A stretch of DNA of 64,000 nucleotides from positions 1 through 64,000 of the IMG/VR virus record IMGVR_UViG_3300027734_000045. One strand, written 5' to 3'. The notes beneath the pieces are model-generated. The model worked only from the letters and a program-made list of their open reading frames with translations, did no database searches and was not told the DNA's origin. The DNA comes from a virus. This document shows positions 6,752 through 64,000 of the stretch, in pieces (positions within the stretch are counted from its first letter, which is position 1; each line of letters starts with the position of its first letter). A program made the translations under genes and the position numbers.

Positions 6752-7069
6752 ATGAGCATTGAGAACTTAGTTCCAGAGGACTACCCTGACTTTTTTGCTC
6801 AAGGAGAACCTATTTGCTCGCAGGTCGACCCGGAGGCTTTCTTTCCTCAAGAAAAAAATGGAAATAGGTTATCAAGTTACTACGACGAAAGAGGAGCAAA
6901 AGGTCTTTGCTCGACTTGTCCATATAAAGTGGCTTGCTTAGTTTACGCACTTAAATACGACGAGGCTGGTATCTGGGGTGGAACTACTGAGGGGCAGAGA
7001 AGACTAATGAAAAAAGATGCAAAAACTAGAGGCGTTTCTTTTGAAGAAATAGCGGTTGAGATACCATAG
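6752..7069 (+). CDS. whiB: WhiB-family Fe-S transcription factor
   Basis: C.QVDPEAFFP...C..CP....C and GIWGGTTE..RR motifs. Confidence 0.92.
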   Translation: MSIENLVPEDYPDFFAQGEPICSQVDPEAFFPQEKNGNRLSSYYDERGAKGLCSTCPYKVACLVYALKYDEAGIWGGTTEGQRRLMKKDAKTRGVSFEEIAVEIP

Positions 7070-9087: not shown

Positions 9088-9434
9088 GGGGATGACTGGT
9101 TTCGACAGTTGTCTTGATGTTAGTGAAGCAAGCCGAGACGGCCACGCACTTGTAAGTGTGGCAAAAACATAAATGCTGAATCTCGTTCCGCATTCGCTTT
9201 AGCAGCGTAATCTAATTACAACGCTTCGGCCCCTAACAAAGCACTAGTTCTAGGTGGGCAGTTAGGTCTTAAATAAATAGAACAAAACAAAGACTTTTCC
9301 CACGGAGTCTTAAAATCGTGGTAACGTCTAGACGGGTCTGGTAGGTTGTCCGTCTAGTCGCACCTAATCTACCTAAGCTTGTAGAAGAATAACTGAACGT
9401 CAATTGGACCGGGGTTCGATTCCCCGCATCTCCA
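9088..9434 (+). ncRNA. ssrA: tmRNA; tag peptide AESRSAFALAA (9175-9210)
   Basis: 5' GGGGATG..GGTTTCGAC pairs with 3' CATCTCC-A including the G3-U70 pair; T-arm CGGGG-TTCGATT-CCCCG; AUAAAU before the resume codon; tag ends ALAA-stop. No encoded CCA. Extended -10 (TG-TATAAT) near 9039-9046. Confidence 0.95.
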
Positions 9435-9493
9435 CGCTTGTAGACAAAGGAGCGTAAAGCGGTCTACCCGTCCTAGGCAACGGAAATCTCCAA

Positions 9494-9629: not shown

Positions 9630-9700
9630 TGGTTCTAAGTGTTACGGCAGCACGGCGGTCTCCAACACCGCAGGCCTGGGTTCGACTCCCAGAGAACCGG
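9630..9700 (+). tRNA. tRNA-Trp(CCA)
   Basis: Acceptor TGGTTCT/AGAACCG, D-arm GTGT/GCAC, anticodon arm GCGGT-CT CCA AC-ACCGC, T-arm CTGGG-TTCGACT-CCCAG, discriminator G73; no encoded CCA. Confidence 0.85.
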
Positions 9701-9831
9701 CGAAGCTCATAGACATAAACTAATTAGCTCATGGAGCACTTGTCTATTGACGTGGTTAGGATGCATCCGGTTGCAAACGGTCTCCTATAAAGCGTCAGAT
9801 CGCGCCGGCTGGTTGAGCTAGGAAGGTGCCG

Positions 9832-24946: not shown

Positions 24947-25023
24947 ACTTTTTTTGCAAATGGGAATAATTCTGCGGAGATTCCTGTTATTATAGTCATA
25001 GGTAAACGACACAAGGAGACTCA

Positions 25024-26168: not shown

Positions 26169-26285
26169 AACTTTTTCAAAAATCTTTGTAAATGTGCAGC
26201 ATATTTGCTAAAAACCTGTTATTATAGATAAGTAGCAAAAACAACTGAATATCGAGTAAACGAAAAAACGACAGAAGGAGCTCAC

Positions 26286-27414: not shown

Positions 27415-27616
27415 AAACTTTTCGAAAAAGTTTGCTCTTTTGGGAATAAAATCTATCTAAACATGATTATAATAGATAGGTAATAAAAAACGGCAAAAAC
27501 TAGTGATTATAACAGAATGATAACTTTCAAAAAAAGTTTGCTAAATGAGCAGTTTTATAGCAAAAACCTGTTATAATGATTAGGTACCAAAAATAAACGA
27601 CAAAAGGAGTCTGCAC

Positions 27617-28296: not shown

Positions 28297-28348
28297 TCAC
28301 TAACCCGAGCACCAAAGCAAAAGACAAACGACAAACAGAGGAGTTCAC

Positions 28349-29494: not shown

Positions 29495-29588
29495 AACTTT
29501 TCAAAAATCTTTGCTAAATGGGAATAAAAACAGGCTAAAACCTGTTATAATGATTAGGTAGCAAAAACAAACGACACAAGGAGTCAAA

Positions 29589-29882: not shown

Positions 29883-30015
29883 TCCTCAAAACTTTTTCAA
29901 AAAAGTTGCAGAATGTGCAGCTAATTTGGAGAATACCTGTTATAATGAATAGGTACCAAAAAATAACTGAATATCGAAAACCTCACTACATACACAATGA
30001 CAATAGGAGTCTAAA

Positions 30016-30387
30016 TTGAGTGAAATCAAGGTAGCAACAAAGGCAACAAAGGTTACGACAACCGTCGTATCATCATCAACCGTCGCAACTACTAAGGTAG
30101 TTGTAGACCTAACTGGAACAGATGTCCAGAAGTGGACAGACCAGTTAGCTCAAGCTCGCGAAGCCATCAAGGCTTTTGAGGCTATGGAAAACGAAGCTAA
30201 AGAAGCTTTGCAGTCACTGATGGGTGACGCAGACTTCGGTGCAGTTGAAGGCATCAACGTCGTTCAGACAATGAACGGAAAGTCAACTGGAATCGATCGC
30301 GCCATCTTGAAGGAAGCGTTCCCAGACGCATACACTGCAACTTACTGGGAGAAGCCAACCCGCTGGTTCAAGGTTCTCTCCAAGTAA
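30016..30387 (+). CDS. Hypothetical protein resembling the C-terminal part of YqaJ-type recombinases
   Basis: Coiled coil, then MGDA...ID...LKE.FPD.Y.......R.F.V; TTG start with AGGAG SD. Confidence 0.55.
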   Translation: MSEIKVATKATKVTTTVVSSSTVATTKVVVDLTGTDVQKWTDQLAQAREAIKAFEAMENEAKEALQSLMGDADFGAVEGINVVQTMNGKSTGIDRAILKEAFPDAYTATYWEKPTRWFKVLSK

Positions 30388-30393
30388 TCTGAG

Positions 30394-30433
30394 GAGGTTG
30401 CCTGACGGCGAAAGCCGTCAGGTACCTGCCTCC
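30394..30433 (+). terminator. Strong stem-loop with GAAA tetraloop
   Basis: CCTGACGGC-GAAA-GCCGTCAGG; no U-tract on the plus strand. Confidence 0.55.
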
Positions 30434-30526
30434 AAAAAAGTTTTGCAAATGTGCAGCATAGAGCACGAAAACCTGTTATAATCGAACTACGGTGAAAACC
30501 AAATACAAAAAGACGAAGGAGTTCAA

Positions 30527-30976
30527 ATGAACGAAACGACAAAGAACAAAAAAGCAATGTACATGGAGTTCCAAACTGGAAACTTCATAGTTCAAATGCT
30601 AATCACACCAGAAGGTGAGAGACTGGGGAGCACAGTTCCATTAGTAATCTACCGTCGACGTGTGAGCAACGACTCACCAAAAAGCCAATGGAAGGGTTAT
30701 CCAGCAGTCACTAAAACGACTCTTGGACAAACGGTAGACACAAAGTCTGCGGCACTCAACATCGGAAAGATGAGAGTCGCTCACATCGATTCTCTGCTGA
30801 AGCAGCTTGAGACTCGTGGCTACAAACTAGTGAATCAGCCATTCGTGGTCGACTTCACTCAAGAAGACTTGGCGGATACTTGTGCACTCAAGACTCCGTA
30901 CAAGGTTTTGAACAGAGTGCTAAAAAGCAGAACTTACTTAGGTTTCGCAGAATTACCAAAAACTGTTGCAAAATAG
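30527..30976 (+). CDS. Hypothetical protein upstream of the AAA/vWA pair
   Basis: Conserved promoter and leader upstream. Confidence 0.7.
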   Translation: MNETTKNKKAMYMEFQTGNFIVQMLITPEGERLGSTVPLVIYRRRVSNDSPKSQWKGYPAVTKTTLGQTVDTKSAALNIGKMRVAHIDSLLKQLETRGYKLVNQPFVVDFTQEDLADTCALKTPYKVLNRVLKSRTYLGFAELPKTVAK

Positions 30977-31025
30977 GTTATAATAGACCTAGGCAACAAA
31001 CAACGAAAAAACGACAAGGAGCATT

Positions 31026-32000
31026 ATGGAATATTTAGAGAAGCAATACAGTGGAATCACGGAAGCAATGTACGCAGTCGCAGGACAAGGCGTACACGCA
31101 GAGGCAACAGACTACATTCCAGCGAAGATGGTAATCGCTGCTGGTACAGTAGACGTCAAGGTCGCAAAGAAGAAGGTGGTTACAGTGACAGAGATAGCGT
31201 CACTCACAGGTTTAGTGAAGTATCCTAGACCAAACGGTGAAGACTACTTTGCTCGTCTTTGGGGTGGACACTCAGATGTCGAGGCAGTTCGCAAGTCAAG
31301 AGCGAAGAATCACTTCGTCTTGCTTTACGGAGCACCAGGCTGTGGAAAGACTGCTTTGGTTGAAGCTGCTTTTGGCGAAGAGCTCGAGACAATCATCGGA
31401 ACCGGTGACACCGAAGTTGGAGACTTCATCGGTGGATACGTTCAGACTCCAAGCGGAGGATTCGACTGGGTCGATGGTCCACTTGTTAGAGCTGCAGAGC
31501 AAGGTAAAGTTCTGCTAATCGACGAGATTGGTCTGATCGATCCAAAGGTGCTTTCGCTGGTGTACGGTCTGATGGATGGACGTGATGAATTAGTAGTCAC
31601 TGCGAATCCAGAGAGAGGCACAGTGAAGGCCAAGGACGGATTCTACGTGATTGCGGCCACTAACCCGAACGCACCAGGAGTGAACCTCTCTGAGGCTCTC
31701 TTGTCCCGATTCAGCATCCAGGCGGAGATGTCAACAGATTACTCGTTGGCAAAGAAGCTCGGTGCTCCACAGTTGATTGTGACTGCGGCAATGAATCTCG
31801 CGAAGAAGCAAGCGAGCCAAGAAGTGTCTTGGGCTCCGCAGATGCGCGAGCTTCTAAAGTTCAAGCAAATCAGCGAGGACTTTGGAACTACATGGGCAAT
31901 TTCGAATCTACTCGCTTGTGCTCCGTTTGAGGATCGTCCAGTCGTCGCAGACGTATTGACGAGAGTCTTCGGTGAAGAGTTCAAGCCAGCCAAAATCTAA
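31026..32000 (+). CDS. MoxR-like AAA+ ATPase (CbbQ/NirQ/CobS type)
   Basis: Walker A GAPGCGKT, WVDGPL, Walker B LLIDE, AATNP and ALLSRF. Confidence 0.92.
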   Translation: MEYLEKQYSGITEAMYAVAGQGVHAEATDYIPAKMVIAAGTVDVKVAKKKVVTVTEIASLTGLVKYPRPNGEDYFARLWGGHSDVEAVRKSRAKNHFVLLYGAPGCGKTALVEAAFGEELETIIGTGDTEVGDFIGGYVQTPSGGFDWVDGPLVRAAEQGKVLLIDEIGLIDPKVLSLVYGLMDGRDELVVTANPERGTVKAKDGFYVIAATNPNAPGVNLSEALLSRFSIQAEMSTDYSLAKKLGAPQLIVTAAMNLAKKQASQEVSWAPQMRELLKFKQISEDFGTTWAISNLLACAPFEDRPVVADVLTRVFGEEFKPAKI

Positions 32001-32009
32001 CGCGTAAGC

Positions 32010-32115
32010 TTCGGGTCGTTTTTCTTCGTCGTTTCTCGACCCGAAATGACAGTCGGTTTTTTCGTTTCCCGACTGTCGGAGGGAGGGGACTGTGTCCATT
32101 CCGGTCTCCTCCTTC
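32010..32115 (+). ncRNA. Three-hairpin intergenic RNA element
   Basis: Two perfect 9-bp stems with U-rich loops, then a 14-bp stem containing three G-U pairs. Confidence 0.55.
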
Positions 32116-32214
32116 TCAAAACTTTATATAAAAAGTTTCCAAAAATGACAGATTCTAGAGTATTTCCTGTTATAATCGTATTAGGCAAGTAAGAGACAGA
32201 ACGAAGGAGAACAC

Positions 32215-34074
32215 ATGGCTCACTTGAAAGACGGAACAACAAAGGCACAGAACACGCCACCGCAGTGGTTGCCTGTAGGTGCAAACATCGGTCGAGTAGT
32301 AAATGACTGGGCGAACCGAGGAGACCTAGTTGTCTATCTTGGTCCAGGCGCTGGAGGACCTGCTCCAGCATGTTACACTCCATCTCTCGCTGAAATTGAA
32401 ATCAACACAGACGTAGCGTTCGGAGCTATCACAGACCCGAAGACAATCGGAGACCTATCTGTTCGCAAGAATCAGTACAAGTATCCAAAGGCGATTGGCG
32501 CTATCATGCACGAATCATTCCACGCACGCTTCACTCGCTGGGACTTGGTTGCGGCAGCTAAGGCTCTTCAACCTGATGAGCTTGCTGCTCTGCATTGGCT
32601 GGAAGAGACTCGAATCGAAAAGTTTGGACTTAGGTCTATGCCGAAGAATCGCGCGTTCCTTCGCAGTTGTGCTTTGGAAATCGTTATCGACGACATGCAC
32701 GAAGGAATCAAGTCAGCGAAGTCAGTCGAGGCGGTTGCGCAGATAGCAGCTTTAGTTCTCGCAAGAATCGACGCAGGAGTAATCGATCGCGTTGACGTGT
32801 ACGCACTGGCTCCGATGATTGAGTCGATGCTCGGTGAAGAGCTACTTGCAAGTCTTCGTGAAATCTGGTTGGAATTCCAGGAACACGATGAGCACGCGAA
32901 TCCACTTCCACTTTACGACTTAGCTCGCGAATGGGCGAAGCTCGTTAGAGAAGTAGCCGAAGAAGGAGAAGGCGAAGGCGAAGGCGAAGGCGAAGGCGAA
33001 GGCGAAGGTTCCGGTGAAGGCGATTGCGAAAAACCTGGCAGTGGCAAAGGTAAAGGCAAGGGTAAAGGCACAGGAGACTACGAAGTACTCGTGCAAGAAC
33101 TTGTAGATGCTCTCAGCGAAGCTGCCGAAGACGCAATCATCAACGCTCAATCAGAACTTGACGACCAGGAACTAAGTGACGACTACAAAGAAGAAGCAGA
33201 CATGCGAACTCGCTACAATCAAGAAGTTGCGAAGAACGCCGAAGTCGCTAAGAACGTTTTCTCAAGAGCCACTGGACCAGGCAGTGGACAGGCAACTTCA
33301 TCAAGTCTTATTGAATCTCGCGTGCCAACATCTAAAGAGAGAATTGCGGCAGTGCAGGTTGCCAACGCGTTGAAGAAGGCAAAATACCGTGATCGTTCAG
33401 AGACCACAGTGTCATCTGTGATTCCACCTGGACGTCTGCGTACTCGCACTCTGGTGCAGGGAACTGCGGCGAAGACTAAAAACCCGATGGCTTCTGTTGA
33501 GCCATGGCGTCAAACAAAGCGTAAGCACGTGGACGACCCAGAACTTAAAATCGGAGTGATGGTTGACATCTCTGGTTCTATGGGTGGAGCGATGCAGCCA
33601 ATGGCTTCTGCAGCTTGGATTCTTTCAGAGGCGACCAAGCGAGTTCAAGGAAAAGCAGCAATGGTCTACTACGGTAGCAGCGTCTTCCCGACTCTAAAGC
33701 CTGGACAAAACCTAGACAAGGTGAATGTCTACTCGGCTCCGGACGGAACTGAAGAGTTCGACACAGCGTTCAGAGTTCTTGACGGAGGTCTGAACTTGAC
33801 TGCTGGGACAGGAGCTCGTCTGCTCGTCGTAGTTTCCGATGGACACTACACTCCTGAGCAGACTAAGCTTGCGAAAGCTGCAGTGGCAAAGTGCGCGAGT
33901 GCCGGAGTTGGAGTTCTCTGGATTACGTTCCAGCGAGATGGTGGAGTAATCCAAAACTATCTGAATGGAAAGCCTGGAACAAAGTTAGTCCAAGTTCTTG
34001 ACAAGGACTTCACCAAAGCAGCGATGGAAATCGGTGCGGCAGCTGCGCAGGCATTGACTGCAGCAGGAAGATAA
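32215..34074 (+). CDS. vWA-domain protein with N-terminal HExxH (CobT-like partner of the AAA ATPase)
   Basis: HESFH, (GE)n/(GK)n linker, MIDAS motif DISGS...GT...VVVSDG. Confidence 0.9.
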   Translation: MAHLKDGTTKAQNTPPQWLPVGANIGRVVNDWANRGDLVVYLGPGAGGPAPACYTPSLAEIEINTDVAFGAITDPKTIGDLSVRKNQYKYPKAIGAIMHESFHARFTRWDLVAAAKALQPDELAALHWLEETRIEKFGLRSMPKNRAFLRSCALEIVIDDMHEGIKSAKSVEAVAQIAALVLARIDAGVIDRVDVYALAPMIESMLGEELLASLREIWLEFQEHDEHANPLPLYDLAREWAKLVREVAEEGEGEGEGEGEGEGEGSGEGDCEKPGSGKGKGKGKGTGDYEVLVQELVDALSEAAEDAIINAQSELDDQELSDDYKEEADMRTRYNQEVAKNAEVAKNVFSRATGPGSGQATSSSLIESRVPTSKERIAAVQVANALKKAKYRDRSETTVSSVIPPGRLRTRTLVQGTAAKTKNPMASVEPWRQTKRKHVDDPELKIGVMVDISGSMGGAMQPMASAAWILSEATKRVQGKAAMVYYGSSVFPTLKPGQNLDKVNVYSAPDGTEEFDTAFRVLDGGLNLTAGTGARLLVVVSDGHYTPEQTKLAKAAVAKCASAGVGVLWITFQRDGGVIQNYLNGKPGTKLVQVLDKDFTKAAMEIGAAAAQALTAAGR

Positions 34075-34630: not shown

Positions 34631-34875
34631 TGAGAAGGCGCGAAGACAGAGTGCTGGTTCTGTTGGCCAAGGATTCTGACAGTCTAGAGGGACGCAAGGG
34701 AGTCTTAGAGCTGGTGTCCTGTAGACGCGGTAAGCACTGTGAGATTCACGGACAAAAGCGTTTACAAAAAAGTTATAAAAAGTTTCGCAAATGTGCAGCA
34801 AAGTAGAGCGAAACCTGTTATAATCGAATAGTAGCAAAAACCAAATACAAATGACAAACGACAAAAGGAGTCAAC

Positions 34876-36919: not shown

Positions 36920-37022
36920 TTACAAAAAAGTTATAAAAAACTTTGCAAATGTGCAGCTTTTTGCTCCAGTTCCTGTTATAATCGAACTAGAAACAAAAAG
37001 ACAAACGACAAAAGGAGCTCAA

Positions 37023-46521: not shown

Positions 46522-46871
46522 TTGCTTTTTCCTTTTGTCGTTTTGTTTTTTGTTTCTAAGATTATTATAACAGGAACTTAGCAAAATAAACACACTTTAG
46601 CAAAGATTTTTAGACAAGTTATCATTTTGTTATAAAGTTGATTCCGGCTTGAACTACGGTGAAAGTTCGCACTTCGATGAGAAGTTTTCTACTTTTTCTG
46701 AAGTCTTTCGATTTCAAAAAGTTCTAAGTTTTCTGCGAAAGCAAAAAGCTTGAAGAGAGTAGAGTTGAGATTTCTCTTTTCTTAGATTTCTGAAGTCTTC
46801 AGATTTTTCTTCGTTGAGAGAGTTAAAAAGAATCGACCGCATTTCTGTGATCGATTTCTTCTCGCTTTCGC

Positions 46872-47144: not shown

Positions 47145-47295
47145 TCGCTTTTCCTTTTGTCGTTTATTTATTTTTGGTACATAATCATTATAACATGAAC
47201 TTAGCAAAAATACTGCACATTTAGCAAAGATTTTCTACTTGTTATCATTTTGTTATAATCACTATTCCGGCTTGAACTACGGTGAAAGTTTGCGG

Positions 47296-48120
47296 TAAAA
47301 GCTCACACTCTCTGAAGTTTCTGAAGTTTCTGAAGTTTCTGAAGTCTTCAGATTTCGCTTTCACTTTTGAGCTCTCTGTCGAAAGCAAAGTTGCGATTTT
47401 GAGTTCTCTGTCGAAAGCTGAGATTTTGTTTAGAGCTCTCAATCGAAAGCTGAGATTCATTTTTCTCTCTCTGTCGATTTCTTAGTTTCGATTTAGATCT
47501 CTTTATCAAAAGTAGAGATTCGATTTCTGAAGTCTTTAGAGTTCTTTAGATTTCTTTCGATTTCTTAGAAGTTTCTAAAGTCTTCAGATTTTCGATTTTG
47601 TTTTTAGATTTCTCTTTCGATTTCTGAAGTCTTTAGATTCTTTAGATTCTTTAGAAGATTTTCTAAGTTTTCTAAAGTTTTCTGAAGTTTCTAAAGTTCT
47701 CTGAAGTTTTTCTTTCGCTACTAAAGTTCTCTGAAGTTTCTAAAGTTCTCTAAAGTCTTTCGATTTCTTAGAAGTTTCTAAAGTCTTTCGATTTCTCTTT
47801 CGATTTCTGAAGTCTTTCGATTTCTGCTTTTCTCTTTTGACTTCTCTTTTGATTTCTGAAGTTTTTAGATTTCTTCAAAGTCTCTGAAGTCTTTAGATTC
47901 GTTTAGTTGATTGCGGTAAATGATTGCGGTGAATTCGAACTCTCTTCAAAGTTTCTGAAGTCTTTCGATTTCTGAAGTCTTCAGATTTTTGATTTTAGTT
48001 TTTCGATTTCTGAAGTCTTCAGATTTCTTTCGCAACTTTAGATTTCTTTAGATTTCTTTCGCAACTTTAGATTTCTTTCGCAACTTTAGATTTCTGTTTT
48101 TCTTTTTCTCTTTCTCTTTA
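47296..48120. repeat. Non-coding low-complexity repeat tract
   Basis: Dozens of degenerate TTTCT(G/A)AAGT(C/T)TT and TT(C/A)GATTT units. Confidence 0.85.
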
Positions 48121-48426: not shown

Positions 48427-49308
48427 TTTTTTCCTTTTGTCGTTTTGTCGTTTATTTATTTTTGGTACATAATCATTATACACTATTTTTAGCAAAATAG
48501 CTGCACTTTAGCAAAGATTTTTGCTAAGTTATCACTTTGTTATAAAGAGTTATTTTGCGGTGATTTGCGGTGATTTCTTGATTTTTCTCGTATTTTTGAA
48601 CAAATGTTCAGGTCGCTAAGATTCATTATAATCAACTGTCTTTTGTTCTTGACTTTGATTTCTCTTTGTCATTTTGTGGAGCAATTCTGGGCGACATGAC
48701 AAAAGGGCACAAAAAGCTACAATGAGCGCAAAGTCTCTTCTTTTCTCAATTTCTCACTTTCTTCGCACTCTCTCACTCTCACTCACTTTCGTCGACTTTC
48801 TCTTCTTTTCTCTCGCTCTCGCTTTCTCTCACTCTCTCACTCTCACTTTCTCTCGCTATTTTTCTCTCGCTCTCGCTCTCGCTCTCTTCTTCTCTCACTT
48901 TGGCTCACACAAAAGCTCACGCAAAAGCGAAAGACTTTTCGACTTCTCGCTCTCTTCTTCTCTCACTCTAAGCGCTTTCATGAGCTTCTTTTTTCTTTAG
49001 AGAGTCTCGGCTGTGTGGAGTGAGCGCAGTTATAAAAATGTTATCATTAGAGTTGTGTGGAGTGAGAGAAGTCGTGTGATTGTGTGGTGTGGAGTGTAAT
49101 GAGAAAGTTATAATTGGTCGGTTTGGTGATTCGGGTCTCTGTTTGGGTCGGTTTGGTGATTCGGTGGAGACGTTTTCAAGAAGCTCACACACTAACCGCA
49201 ACCCTCTCTTTCACCAAAGACACCTAACCTTACTGTACTGCTTCCTCTCCTCTGTACACAACCTCTCCGCCGTAGTCAGTTGTACACTCGCATGATACAG
49301 TATCTCGC

Positions 49309-63600: not shown

Positions 63601-64000
63601 GCTCAGTCAAGGTCGAGCAGGGAGAACTTGATGGCAAGCCTGTCACCTACACCAGGATGATAGACGGCGCTAAGAGTGACCTAAAGGATAAGCTATCAGA
63701 CAAGTTCTACATGAAGCAGCTGCAGGAAGGCTTTGCGGTTGACGCTCTTCTTGCCAACTGGGACGTGGCCGGCCTAGAGTACGACAACGTGGTATCTGAC
63801 GCAGAGGGACTTCCTGTTCGCGTTGACCCAGGAGGCGCGCTTCTGTTCCGCGCTCAGGGAACTCCAAAGACAGACGACCAGTTCAATGAAAACGTACCCG
63901 AGCTGGACACCTTTACCGACAAGAACAGCTCGCGTCCTGCCGCCAAGATATTTAGCTCGATGACTGCAAGTGAAAAGTTGGACTCCGCGGTAAAGCTTAG
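54690..64000 (+). CDS. Giant (>3100 aa) acidic virion-associated protein with internal repeats and a HipA/PI3-4-kinase-like domain, partial (runs off right edge)
   Basis: GTG overlaps the upstream TGA, and the same frame reads sensibly at both ends with no closed plus-strand long ORF in the track. QLRDP.TG.W near the N-terminus; GSNPGG.Y...YVK...NE.LA...ANWD..G...DN...VDPGG.L.FRAQG at 63471-63860. Confidence 0.85.
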   Translation, partial: MSIQNIVLPLSLRLRIAEIVSEKNNSVLAARQVPLTAAYVVARRAIALTASLDPSVEGYVAIKAVTAFTTLAIDGRTSLTASSGLDIYRDVLPIGHPEFSNAAVLPIKTLRAARAEWLAADPRIADEYRPLVASAFGATPGSLEQRHARARLDRVDSHSVPLDIVLAPLIAAARKIDIAALKARVADQLRDPHTGQWIEEGHFAMFDLKGPSGKIRKVFGQLVGGNDMLGYGEIHVTDDPDLGTGVVKVNKANITAVGGMLTDENLEKAGVDPQGKQRVYLNTDAQSLNDLAKTMDVAPSDWTWDANEDNSNGSKGAFISADGFKAVPVGEGGQNAKTFDIFDADDKPIETLQGEGWGNIQGGLQKIRQDMAKKVDAGKPATESTGTAQMIPAGKLQAGDKVDVAGKENTVVSVSKPYKYKVKPTDLKQTKSGYRNVVDVTLEDENGERVTKRWNPATEIQAIRPEGKEEAPAVEGEVEHGLSDTWTSVMNGALGKREQQLRDLEKSFPPDAAATAEMNELAAARARIKSGVVTEADLEKVKELLSQEDGADSLFTKPGSTISQIDKLLKYKFGKDGAPRSMSQESDDAGKTPIEPGQKVKGGVSDLLDDYDKELQKSGFDVGMRDGTWTSADGRLELSYEDDAWNVKFDGELAAKVTIWEEDENGKYYEPDDDSIYESIFDSLYGELTKDFTKEDYVDDMVSSGQRSIQEIKDLGKLPDESDEDFGARIKKLEDGLSSLESYIRSDDFKYLPDSMRTEAYGTYTPGTKASPMEQKLNSLLESARHAGYKSRELYLKDLFAKKKAEIDEASKATGPSPDAAAEGKVKAKNKAEAKGKMAEPATDAQKNYVKAMLKNPAVPDDVRSRIQADLDEQGDAINKNDIGLHIAELKNYPSKSLPTDKMYNSIQRELYARGASPEEVDKILADLPNMDKKQASDLIGSLKEKPDLAGEEATKNGFEETTNESDKYDGQRRWTKVEAGKRTTVLLNGDGWRVNHQSNVDPATGTWNDSQMQSIDHDSEKSSSADDVFKNAADTHETLGAKEELPIDESAVAADVAAEVKELSDKQKEPATDKQRAFVDSLLANPKVPADVKSDIESKLAAKPDMNKAEIGEIIGALKKLPGSDAPTSKMLNSVKRELIARGVPVNEANETRANLDGMSKSEVSDLISKLKSKDDAAGAQAAANGFVEATTPEDQAGGVRRFNLLGSDDELLAALTLDGEGFTVNRKDENGEDDELFLGRNLGSFERIANAAKAAQDLKNTDVTKTPGFDSESDREKKIATATYNRPGDSGTWMEGKTPDGQRGWSYYDADGNVTEVTENPDGSFTRRSSDAPEPVTFDSVDEAFSLDSKPSDTGSKMSDFQDDFDDIIEAVQGLDLSGDDESSDDTPASDLKNYVSNQVTQAEELIKKGDLLSAQASLALAAADANDSDVPGADELGDALNNAAKSIADIREAQKALGQGSGGGDEPPSTNAPSSAGDDDFENNVRDVSGDIMSIGEELDKNLKSSAINAIEEREVADGRTILKNAEDSMGQAQEALAAGDTETARKLIDQAASQLADASDVFENILDQSDEGKAVRKLGKSAGDLALKIRETLLDGQPRGGGSAGDRIFGKAGISDDRIMQAMEDVDDWVASEKGNEVSGWDNKVGNLDQMISSFNDEPEARMQKTAEALYELGRELEDNGYKDSANTLFDMSKALSDEFYGDSDEDEDETSTSGTAEYAPATDWTPAENGFNFTGGDEPGEVSAALAKKKKKVEDLIADGDYGGALDELFDGAASIPMSRAMEDDLSGSYDGIQDGDVFYQNADTIVYKTKDGRWRVYSKDETDGFIDTGEPATDQLADELLKEMMAPKSDWTQARFYDPRLNDLFHANNAPGPSGNPANHTSTPNYKISFDGLRMPDDWAGDLGLPEKGEEEEPYSDGELIDTWLKNNGLDELGVKWDPSSTETTFGGANVNFEIPEGAKDKFGEAYYGEGATWKDLEDDEIPEAIEGGEPSSSIYSDTEKAAMNRNIGDSVVVVGKKGKEKPGKIIGVVPSSIGQYIVEHDDGSTSLPWYFDLKPEGAETPSADKKPTEARFNGKIGDSVVVVGKKGKEKPGKIIGYVPGSIGQYIVEHDDGSSSLPWYFDMKADGLETPSADGEGTTTSPAETEKPKKGNQIGERIVVIGKKGKEKPGKIIGYVPGSIGQYIVEHDDGTTSLPWSYETKPEGGETNLGSSGRSSEQVARDAENAKKTANELAAEWNSKPFPIADPDSLASEESLTKMRNILLDGATNSDYFGPALKAIDDPNLSGTEKLQRIADALTERGVGSDGKGVDLPNANPGLPLNGDYSGREKALWAKSNITRALNLNGIFSTKEKEAGKDKLSPRLQKIVDAELKKRSEGDEGNEGTGGVDPKVPSPSKPGGGGAEASTSENSSPELTSKVEGTNAQLTKRFASRDERDAWLKSIPKGAEAGIAISISSPTDFDFYNKKREHYEVKIDFDTRTEGLGVPKGLGAGRKKAIEWAEKEGFDLSEGEHSSESLVPKVNVDDKITMSNIRFDDKIDQAEKIEAKLKPGEEKDSARLRIKLARDKISKARKARLDGDLEESEKLTEEASAELTAMAEDIEKYMVSPKSQDAKYGLKNKEIREDAAKLAKAVEAVTAKSRIAFAEEKEAKSTESSASSSSTITGDKYKKLIDNAYEKYDPGVAQHSWDTKGIGESIMSHLTGIADDIKSGKELDAKDAAKKMRQLASMYNELADAATGSEGEDGAEWSTDDSSIQDLIQGAQELEKQADLLDPKAVDSPKAEAPSEPDSGETQEPISVDSVLTDGSLASKITKNADMDAAELEQLSTRIAKELENNPQLAAVLKLSGDSPILSALEELNSSNGESSQGLEGDLNVLRDTLDSTIEDSELIDSLTRLLKSVEKKNNTKNLTGFKKISEAKGSNPGGIYEDPKTGERFYVKFPKSTLHGENEALASAIYEELGVRSVKVEQGELDGKPVTYTRMIDGAKSDLKDKLSDKFYMKQLQEGFAVDALLANWDVAGLEYDNVVSDAEGLPVRVDPGGALLFRAQGTPKTDDQFNENVPELDTFTDKNSSRPAAKIFSSMTASEKLDSAVKL
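60729..61300 (+). repeat. Three near-identical ~46-aa SH3/Tudor-like coding repeats
   Basis: IGD.VVV.GKKGKEKPGKIIG.VP.SIGQYIVEHDDG..SLPW at 60729, 60936 and 61167. Confidence 0.9.

Follow-up and report, generated by a model that had tools for sequence, protein, structure and literature searches.

What does a phage do with a stack of RNA hairpins at the end of an early gene, when the loop of the first hairpin contains the complement of a short motif just ahead of many ribosome binding sites in the same genome? We addressed this question for positions 32010-32116 of a 64,000-nt stretch of phage DNA (the window), the opening part of a freshwater actinophage contig of 121,061 bp with 48.5% GC (IMG/VR record IMGVR_UViG_3300027734_000045). 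Three consecutive hairpins lie there between a gene for an AAA_5-type ATPase and a 619-aa gene, and an initial annotation, made from the sequence alone, had proposed that they form a small RNA derived from the 3' untranslated region (3' UTR), whose loops are antisense to a leader shared by many early genes and could shut off their translation. Hairpins 1 and 2 are members of a new structured-RNA family in freshwater actinophages that is absent from Rfam. Comparative data lend partial support to the proposed mechanism, which is plausible though unproven, and in the window phage itself the predicted pairing is thermodynamically indistinguishable from chance.

Three consecutive hairpins at the end of the AAA gene

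Folding of 32010-32116 on the plus strand confirmed the three stems described in the initial annotation, with a free energy of -56.7 kcal/mol (z -6.66) that none of 200 shuffled sequences matched, whereas the minus strand of the same segment folded more weakly (-46.4 kcal/mol, z -4.06). Hairpin 1 (32010-32045, plus strand) consists of a 9-bp stem (32010-32018/32037-32045) and an 18-nt loop, UUUUUCUUCGUCGUUUCU (32019-32036), and is a full member of the family described below. Hairpin 2 (32048-32077, plus strand) likewise has a 9-bp stem (32048-32056/32069-32077), which carries a degenerate 12-nt version of the family loop, UUUUUUCGUUUC (32057-32068). Hairpin 3 (32078-32116, plus strand), whose long stem pairs GA with CU stretches over about 15 bp, is terminator-like without a U tract and is kept in the L175 group of relatives. 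Its stem holds four wobble pairs on the plus strand, three G.U and one U.G, and loses 4 pairs on the minus strand, which bears out the earlier claim that stem 3 favours the plus strand as the RNA.

As had also been observed, loop 1 contains GUCGUUU, the complement of the leader motif AAACGAC; the heptamer is located at 32015-32021 and 32028-32034. Hereafter we refer to the leader motif as the box and to hairpins that expose its complement as anti-box hairpins. A YUNR U-turn in the loop is a criterion for kissing-loop antisense RNAs, and the UUCG immediately 5' of the anti-box bases fits this motif, four letters being weak evidence. A search of 30000-34000 against Rfam 15 (cmscan, E<=10) returned three noise hits only, none of them over hairpin 1. 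Contigs of four DNA runs gave one near-identical strain variant (98-99% identity), too little variation for testing the structure; in this strain the T run of the hairpin 2 loop is one nt shorter, at 32057, and hairpin 1 and all stems are unchanged. None of the sequencing runs listed as containing the locus is an RNA run.

Hairpins 1 and 2 belong to a family with covarying stems and a nearly invariant loop

We inspected the spacer after the AAA gene in 43 IMG/VR loci encoding the AAA protein at 59-70% identity. At three of them (L002, L042, L043) the loop of the window was found directly after the AAA stop codon on a wholly different stem. The exact 16-nt loop occurred at 50 places in IMG/VR: at 18 of them it is enclosed by a stem of 6-11 bp, and at the remaining 32 the flanks pair over at most 4 bp. 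Relaxed searches added more stems and a GUUAU variant of the loop, which in other lineages is located 1.3-2.5 kb ahead of the AAA gene. In a MAFFT alignment of 20 sequences (A1), which includes the window hairpins as seeds of a covariance model (R1), eight of the nine stem pairs changed on both sides, giving 49 such cells compared to 19.1 ± 3.6 in shuffles (0/500). The covariation score was 0.588, against 0.17-0.23 when the pairing partners were slid by 1-3 columns. The loop was nearly invariant across the same sequences, with the consensus UUUCUUCGUCGUUUC, an invariant core UUCGU and at least 90% conservation in most of the flanking loop columns. Fold and covariation thus describe a stable stem-loop that exposes a single-stranded loop, as is expected of kissing-loop antisense RNAs. 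A lack of loop conservation in relatives had been set beforehand as a refutation of the initial proposal; the loop is strongly conserved, and since the hairpin belongs to a conserved family, the observation behind that proposal is much stronger than was first apparent.

Hairpins 1 and 2, both seed sequences, scored 39.1 bits (E 1.1e-10) and 22.2 bits (E 1.1e-4) against R1. The window genome contains one strong R1 locus, made up of 32010-32045 and the adjacent 32046-32079, and everything else in it scored at E>=0.97. One strong locus each was also present in four large relatives (G001-G004), in the complete genomes G010 and G011, and in the metagenome-assembled Actinomycetia phage DSL-LC01, the nearest named relative of the window phage (72% DNA identity across part of the AAA gene), for which PMC10611076 was the sole paper found to mention it. 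The match in DSL-LC01 (E 1.4e-8) is not among the seeds; because seeds match R1 by construction, the independent detections are this match and the metagenome copies. A scan of metagenomes gave 68 matches, about 18 of them in the family, and these 18 all of types described above.

All 12 R1 matches within 3 kb of an AAA gene among the 43 loci lay on the strand of that gene, and the stems of the 20 aligned members held 8 G.U pairs on the sense strand compared to 2 on the antisense strand. The position of the hairpin is not syntenic: it follows the AAA gene, an 89-aa open reading frame (ORF) two genes upstream of AAA, or an 'endonuclease' gene 13 kb off, and it always begins a few to about 60 nt past a stop codon. 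Thus, being always on the sense strand and at a gene end, the element sits in 3' UTRs, as had been suggested for the window. The closest relatives (L175, L138, L064) keep the three-hairpin layout with different stems (alignment A2), and their hairpin 2 bears the full or nearly full loop, which marks hairpin 2 of the window as a decayed copy.

Other structured elements were seen next to the family hairpins. The L187 locus has a second conserved hairpin (6800-6866, minus strand), GAGCCA-UGUCGUGAUAAAAC-UGGCUC, downstream of its anti-box hairpin. This second hairpin displays compensatory changes (GAGUCA/UGACUC), has a U-rich tail and a conserved ACCGACCU before it, and has homologues at L185, L125, L135, L170 and L176 and at metagenome loci. 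At L054, L190, L002 and L221 (DSL-LC01) an AAACGAC(G) box without a nearby start codon is found 8-60 nt downstream of the hairpin and could pair with the loop in cis; the window counterpart of this potential pseudoknot box, AAAUGAC, overlaps the foot of stem 1. Four further loci show no anti-box hairpin near the AAA gene, and in their spacer between the AAA and CobT-like genes a tRNA gene (Met-CAT or Ile-TAT) comes after a GC hairpin (L022 1809-1883, L029 3995-4070, L036 3888-3962, L038 3998-4072). Small stable RNAs thus seem to be placed preferentially in this spacer.

A search of GTDB for the exact 18-mer gave 41 matches and no actinobacterial host among them. One match had a stem of at least 6 bp (L265, a metagenome-assembled genome of Opitutae); we judged it to be chance, because the related assembly L258 lacks the stem and the stretch reads, by eye, as an open coding frame.

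The loop is the exact complement of the leader box of relatives

AAACGAC occurs 27 times in the window compared to 12.7 ± 3.5 expected copies, a number reached by none of 100 shuffles. All leader sites listed in the initial annotation were present just before a Shine-Dalgarno (SD) sequence of the GGAG/GGAA type: on the plus strand at 25004-25010, 26266-26272 (preceded by AAACGAAAAA), 27595-27601, 29569-29575, 31009-31015 (the leader of the AAA gene itself), 34856-34862 and 37003-37009, and on the minus strand before two early genes at 46537-46543 and 47159-47165 and as two tandem boxes in one leader at 48439-48453. An additional box was found before an SD at 28326-28332 (plus strand). The shorter AACGAC lay at most 27 nt from the start in 13 of the 137 genes called in the window phage, 12 of these 13 between 25.0 and 48.4 kb and most of them directly after one of about 25 early-type promoters.

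In the relatives AACGACGAAAGGA precedes the ATG of most early genes, and the first ten letters of this motif are the exact complement of UUCGUCGUUU in the loop. Their box, AAACGACGAA, adjoins the SD, and its exact complement is the 3' part of the loop UUUCUUCGUCGUUUC; in the L175 group 0-12 nt separate the AAACGACGAA part from the SD. The 9-mer box follows the gene strand, with sense:antisense counts of 9:1 in G001, 8:1 in G002 and 16:2 in DSL-LC01. The sole antisense copy in G001 and in G002 is the hairpin, as is one of the two in DSL-LC01. All hairpin-bearing genomes tested have boxes, in a table that is small and made of related genomes.

We then compared 177 called leaders from ten loci of relatives, each with the loop of its own phage and with 1000 composition-matched shuffled loops. 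A Watson-Crick complement of at least 9 nt was present in 40 of the 177 leaders, compared to 1.23 ± 1.45 for shuffled loops, and one of at least 10 nt in 21, compared to 0.39; none of the 1000 shuffles reached either count. Together with the strand preference of the 9-mer, this shows that the complementarity between loop and box is specific at the level of the clade, and for the relatives the claim of a loop antisense to a shared leader holds. The box was also considered as an extension of the SD towards 16S rRNA and this was rejected, as only GAAAGGA would be able to pair with the 3' end of 16S rRNA.

Evidence against pairing in the window phage

Several observations weigh against a regulatory pairing between loop and box. 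The boxes of the window phage read AAACGAC followed by A or C, so that only 7 nt match the loop. Loop 1 reached a mean of -9.81 kcal/mol against 50 early leaders of this phage, compared to -9.38 ± 0.69 for shuffled loops (z -0.63); 7-nt seeds were present in 17 of the 50 leaders, a count equalled by 8.9% of shuffles, and an 8-nt seed in none. The best duplex of loop 1 (-17.1 kcal/mol) was predicted with the leader of the 619-aa gene, at a box-like stretch plus SD, AACGAAGGAG (32200-32209, plus strand); 64% of shuffled loops do as well, and we dropped this leader as a special target, its energy not being significant. For loop 2, the AACGAAAAAA stretches that had been named as its targets are present at about 26259 and 31002, but its energies and seeds were no better than those of its own shuffles. 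Thus, the expectation that these loops would pair better than shuffled U-rich loops was not borne out in the window phage, and the original argument fails on this genome alone, because U-rich loops pair with A/G-rich leaders regardless of letter order.

The history of the two motifs points in the same direction. The boxes of the window have changed together (G to A after AAACGAC) while the loop is unchanged, which is unlike the expectation for co-evolving partners. Furthermore, five large relatives lack the hairpin; three of them, which are complete genomes (G006, G008, G009), keep 7-12 sense boxes and two have none, and the single antisense 9-mer of G008 lies outside any hairpin. The box therefore has a role that is independent of the hairpin. 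Conversely, the L190 locus has the hairpin, yet none of its 20 called leaders matches over at least 8 nt, and among the ten loci of relatives duplex energies clearly beat shuffles in only five. Finally, the leader sets rest on gene calls from a crude script of our own.

A candidate modulator of early-gene translation and its alternatives

We tentatively favour, from these sequence comparisons, that a loop-presenting anti-box RNA in the 3' UTR base-pairs with the box next to the SD and modulates translation of early genes. An RNA that presents the anti-box best accounts for four features of the loop, which is fixed over about 20 stems, occurs at one locus in each hairpin-bearing genome searched, lies on the transcribed strand and is the mirror image of the leader motif that the clade conserves most. 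The phages concerned form a clade of freshwater actinophages that carry both the AAA-ATPase gene and the CobT-like gene. In them a GC-rich stem of 6-11 bp, which can vary provided that it pairs, exposes the nearly invariant pyrimidine loop 5'-UUUCUUCGUCGUUUC-3'. This anti-box hairpin would be transcribed within the 3' UTR of an early gene, ahead of a terminator-like hairpin, which in the window is hairpin 3 and elsewhere the second hairpin with its U-rich tail. The exposed loop would then pair with the AAACGACGAA box directly 5' of the SD in promoter-proximal leaders of early mRNAs, with wobbles extending into the SD. Its active form may be a processed 3'-UTR fragment or the hairpin still joined to its own mRNA. 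The RNA more likely ends at hairpin 3 or, in L187-type phages, at the U-tailed second hairpin, which gives the element the look of the seed-plus-terminator module of a 3'-UTR RNA. Pairing might modulate ribosome access or mRNA stability of all box-bearing genes, as a candidate device for early shut-off or feedback. It could reach the regulon in trans or the mRNA that carries the hairpin in cis (the AAA mRNA starts with a box at 31009), with an effect in either direction. As the drifted boxes of the window leave a 7-nt seed, the copy in this phage may have a weak effect or reach only some of the leaders.

A less probable explanation, with some real weight, is that the hairpin is a genuine conserved RNA whose loop has a different partner, such as an RNA-binding protein of phage or host, a ribonuclease, or an RNA that is conserved in the host. 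Its match to the box would then be incidental or secondary. The loop is invariant even in the window phage, where boxes have drifted, and is fixed where exact 9-mers are rare, as in the 44 kb G015 contig with one sense copy and at L190 with its leaders devoid of longer seeds; its 5' half (UUUCUU) equals the anti-box half in conservation, although it could pair with the SD only via a mismatch and wobbles. That the box survives without the hairpin in three complete genomes, while the loop stayed fixed as the window boxes drifted, is what keeps this explanation alive. It has to accommodate, however, an exact complement of 9-10 nt shared by the two short motifs that the clade conserves best, which is very unlikely to arise by chance (40 of 177 leaders compared to 1.2), and the hairpin has no constant neighbouring gene, so that synteny offers no candidate for a partner protein.

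The remaining explanations are harder to reconcile with the covariation, the strand bias and the wobble pairs. It is improbable that AACGACGAA acts at the DNA level, as a double-stranded operator for a phage DNA-binding regulator, with the hairpin copy as an extra operator in the loop of a terminator stem. The 9-mer does occur in both orientations and the boxes lie downstream of promoters, but covarying stems around a fixed loop are the reverse of a protein-bound inverted repeat, the boxes keep to the gene strand almost without exception, and in most relatives they are tied to the SD while their distance to the -10 element varies from about 19 to 30 nt; the stem wobbles, moreover, indicate folding of a single strand.

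Very improbable, in turn, is a mere stack of terminators or 3'-end stabilisers for the AAA transcript with functionless loops. The stack does stand at a gene end right before the next promoter, and other cassettes of the window genome likewise have a hairpin at this place. Intrinsic terminators share the GC-rich stem at a gene end, but they have loops of 3-8 nt with a U tract straight after the stem; the loops here are 12-18 nt long (18 and 12 nt in the window), the flanks read AAAUGAC, hairpin 3 and then CAAAACUUU with no U tract, and none of the three hairpins corresponds to any site listed by a terminator scan; a functionless loop, furthermore, would not stay invariant across about 20 stems. 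Just as improbable is a hairpin of single-stranded DNA, such as an origin, nick or priming site with its loop recognised as in rolling-circle origins: a single locus per genome, a fixed loop on a variable stem and strand specificity would suit it, but the element moves among intergenic slots of the early region, is missing from complete relatives, and its complementarity to the leader boxes would be left unexplained. Least probable of all is the alternative raised in the initial annotation, in which a minus-strand transcript, whose loops would reproduce the box (GGAAACGACGAAGAAA) exactly, serves as a CsrB-like decoy for a leader-binding protein, since the orientation relative to early genes is constant (12/12), the wobbles of the family stems and of hairpin 3 favour the sense strand, and no minus-strand promoter-like site is listed for 32000-32400.

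Genomic setting of the hairpins

The gene upstream of the hairpins (31026-32000, plus strand) encodes a 324-aa ATPase that matches Pfam AAA_5 (E 2.9e-21) and has its own box-bearing leader. The downstream gene (32215-34074, plus strand) encodes a CobT/vWA-like protein of 619 aa, whose translation contains a DISGSM (DxSxS) motif and whose counterpart in phage DSL-LC01 carries the annotation 'cobalamin biosynthesis protein'. The flanking genes had been named as AAA and vWA genes; the first assignment was upheld, whereas for the second a Pfam search found no vWA match at E<=0.001, though the motif is visible. The hairpins lie in the 3' UTR of the AAA_5 gene and directly upstream of the next early-type promoter, whose extended -10 element TGTTATAAT is located at 32168-32176 (plus strand) and is one of about 25 in the genome, spread across 20-48 kb.

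Between 19992 and 48500, on both strands, these near-identical promoters, about 25 in all (TTTGCAAATGTGCAGC ... ccTGTTATAAT), frame small ORFs. Each is preceded by a AAAACTTTTT/AAAAATCTTT tract, a layout that recalls the promoter/stem-loop cassettes of T4-type phages. Elsewhere in the window, ARAGORN identified a phage-borne transfer-messenger RNA gene (tag AESRSAFALAA) and a tRNA-Trp gene at 9088-9435 and 9630-9701, and a crude ORF caller gave one open frame of 4391 aa from 54690 to the window end at 64000, running to 67865 in the genome.

A parallel in Cluster K mycobacteriophages

The start-associated sequence (SAS) and its extended form (ESAS) of Cluster K mycobacteriophages resemble the freshwater box, as far as the published descriptions of SAS cover these features: each is a short asymmetric motif that includes or abuts the SD a few nt before the start codon, in one orientation and at many non-structural or early genes. 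The SAS motif itself differs (GGGATAGGAGCCC, 13 bp, compared to AACGACGAAAGGA here, the window reading AAACGAC..GGAG), and phage group and host are different, so that the two are analogous and not homologous. In the section of Pope et al. 2011 on SAS (PMC3203893), whether its partner is an RNA or a protein, and phage- or host-encoded, 'remains to be determined', and the passages on SAS in papers of 2024 and 2025 (PMC11373665, PMC12699233) still call its role unknown.

Many sense copies in the non-structural region and a single inverted copy, as known for SAS, were also found in the window and its relatives. In the Cluster K phage Anaya (L225, JF704106) we counted 16 sense SAS copies and one antisense copy with up to 2 mismatches. 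The inverted copy, on the gene strand in the gp96-gp97 spacer (47853-47917), forms the hairpin loop GCGCGG-CCUCCUAUCC-CCGCGC inside an 11-bp outer stem. Its loop, CCUCCUAUCC, contains the anti-SD CCUCC, whereas the freshwater anti-box loop avoids the SD core. Across nine Cluster K phages (alignment A3) the anti-SAS structure was 91.4% paired, compared to 31-51% with slid partners. Covariation was modest, with 3 pairs changing on both sides and a score of 0.219 against 0.164 ± 0.021 in shuffles (5/500); the loop is kept in five of the nine phages, replaced by a variant in two and missing from two, and the local fold of the Anaya hairpin was unexceptional for that GC-rich genome (z -0.11). The region of the anti-SAS hairpin is conserved in 138 Cluster K records, mostly unannotated. 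The literature searched describes no anti-SAS hairpin, the supplements of the SAS papers, which list all SAS sites, lying outside that search.

As the inverted copy of Anaya also sits in a hairpin loop, two unrelated phage groups share the logic of many sense boxes and one anti-box hairpin. It is possible, though rather doubtful, that actinophages evolved a regulon-wide device at least twice, in which a start-associated box at the ribosome binding site is combined with a single hairpin RNA whose anti-box loop serves as master translational switch or buffer, through the pairs AACGACGAA/UUCGUCGUU in the freshwater phages and GGGAUAGGAG/CCUCCUAUCC in Cluster K1. If so, the Cluster K1 anti-SAS hairpin would be the long-sought partner of the SAS motifs. 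Cluster K1 phages are cultured and engineerable in Mycobacterium smegmatis and RNA-seq exists for them, which makes the question of what recognises SAS, raised in 2011, directly testable.

Comparison with other known systems

That an antisense RNA can control one phage gene is textbook knowledge. The c4 antisense RNA of phages P1 and P7 is a small RNA cut from a longer transcript, whose loops prevent translation of a downstream gene by pairing with sequences at its ribosome binding site. The proposed anti-box RNA would resemble it in pairing through exposed loops, but c4 has one target operon, whereas the loop described here would match 10-20 leaders; the two are unrelated in sequence and structure, and no Rfam match was found here. 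In the icaR mRNA of Staphylococcus aureus a pyrimidine motif in the 3' UTR pairs with the SD region of the 5' leader and represses translation. The AAA mRNA shares this arrangement in that it ends in hairpin 1 and also begins with a box; icaR, however, acts on its own mRNA only and via the SD itself, while the loop found here mainly complements the box that precedes the SD.

The setting of the hairpins recalls the promoter early stem-loop (PeSL) cassettes of T4-type phages, in which an early promoter and a stem-loop frame many small early genes and which are viewed as recombination modules. Small early genes in the window are likewise placed between a repeated early promoter and a stem-loop; PeSLs are not known to have a conserved loop antisense to leaders. 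For the annotation of phage genomes, the hairpins described here define a new structured-RNA family in abundant freshwater actinophages. A literature search for the motif string found no paper, and we found no description of a single hairpin loop that matches the box of ten to twenty early leaders. In T4, single factors, RegA and RegB, act on the ribosome binding site region of many early mRNAs. These are proteins, whereas the candidate factor here is an RNA loop, and such a hairpin would be the RNA counterpart of protein regulators like T4 RegA.

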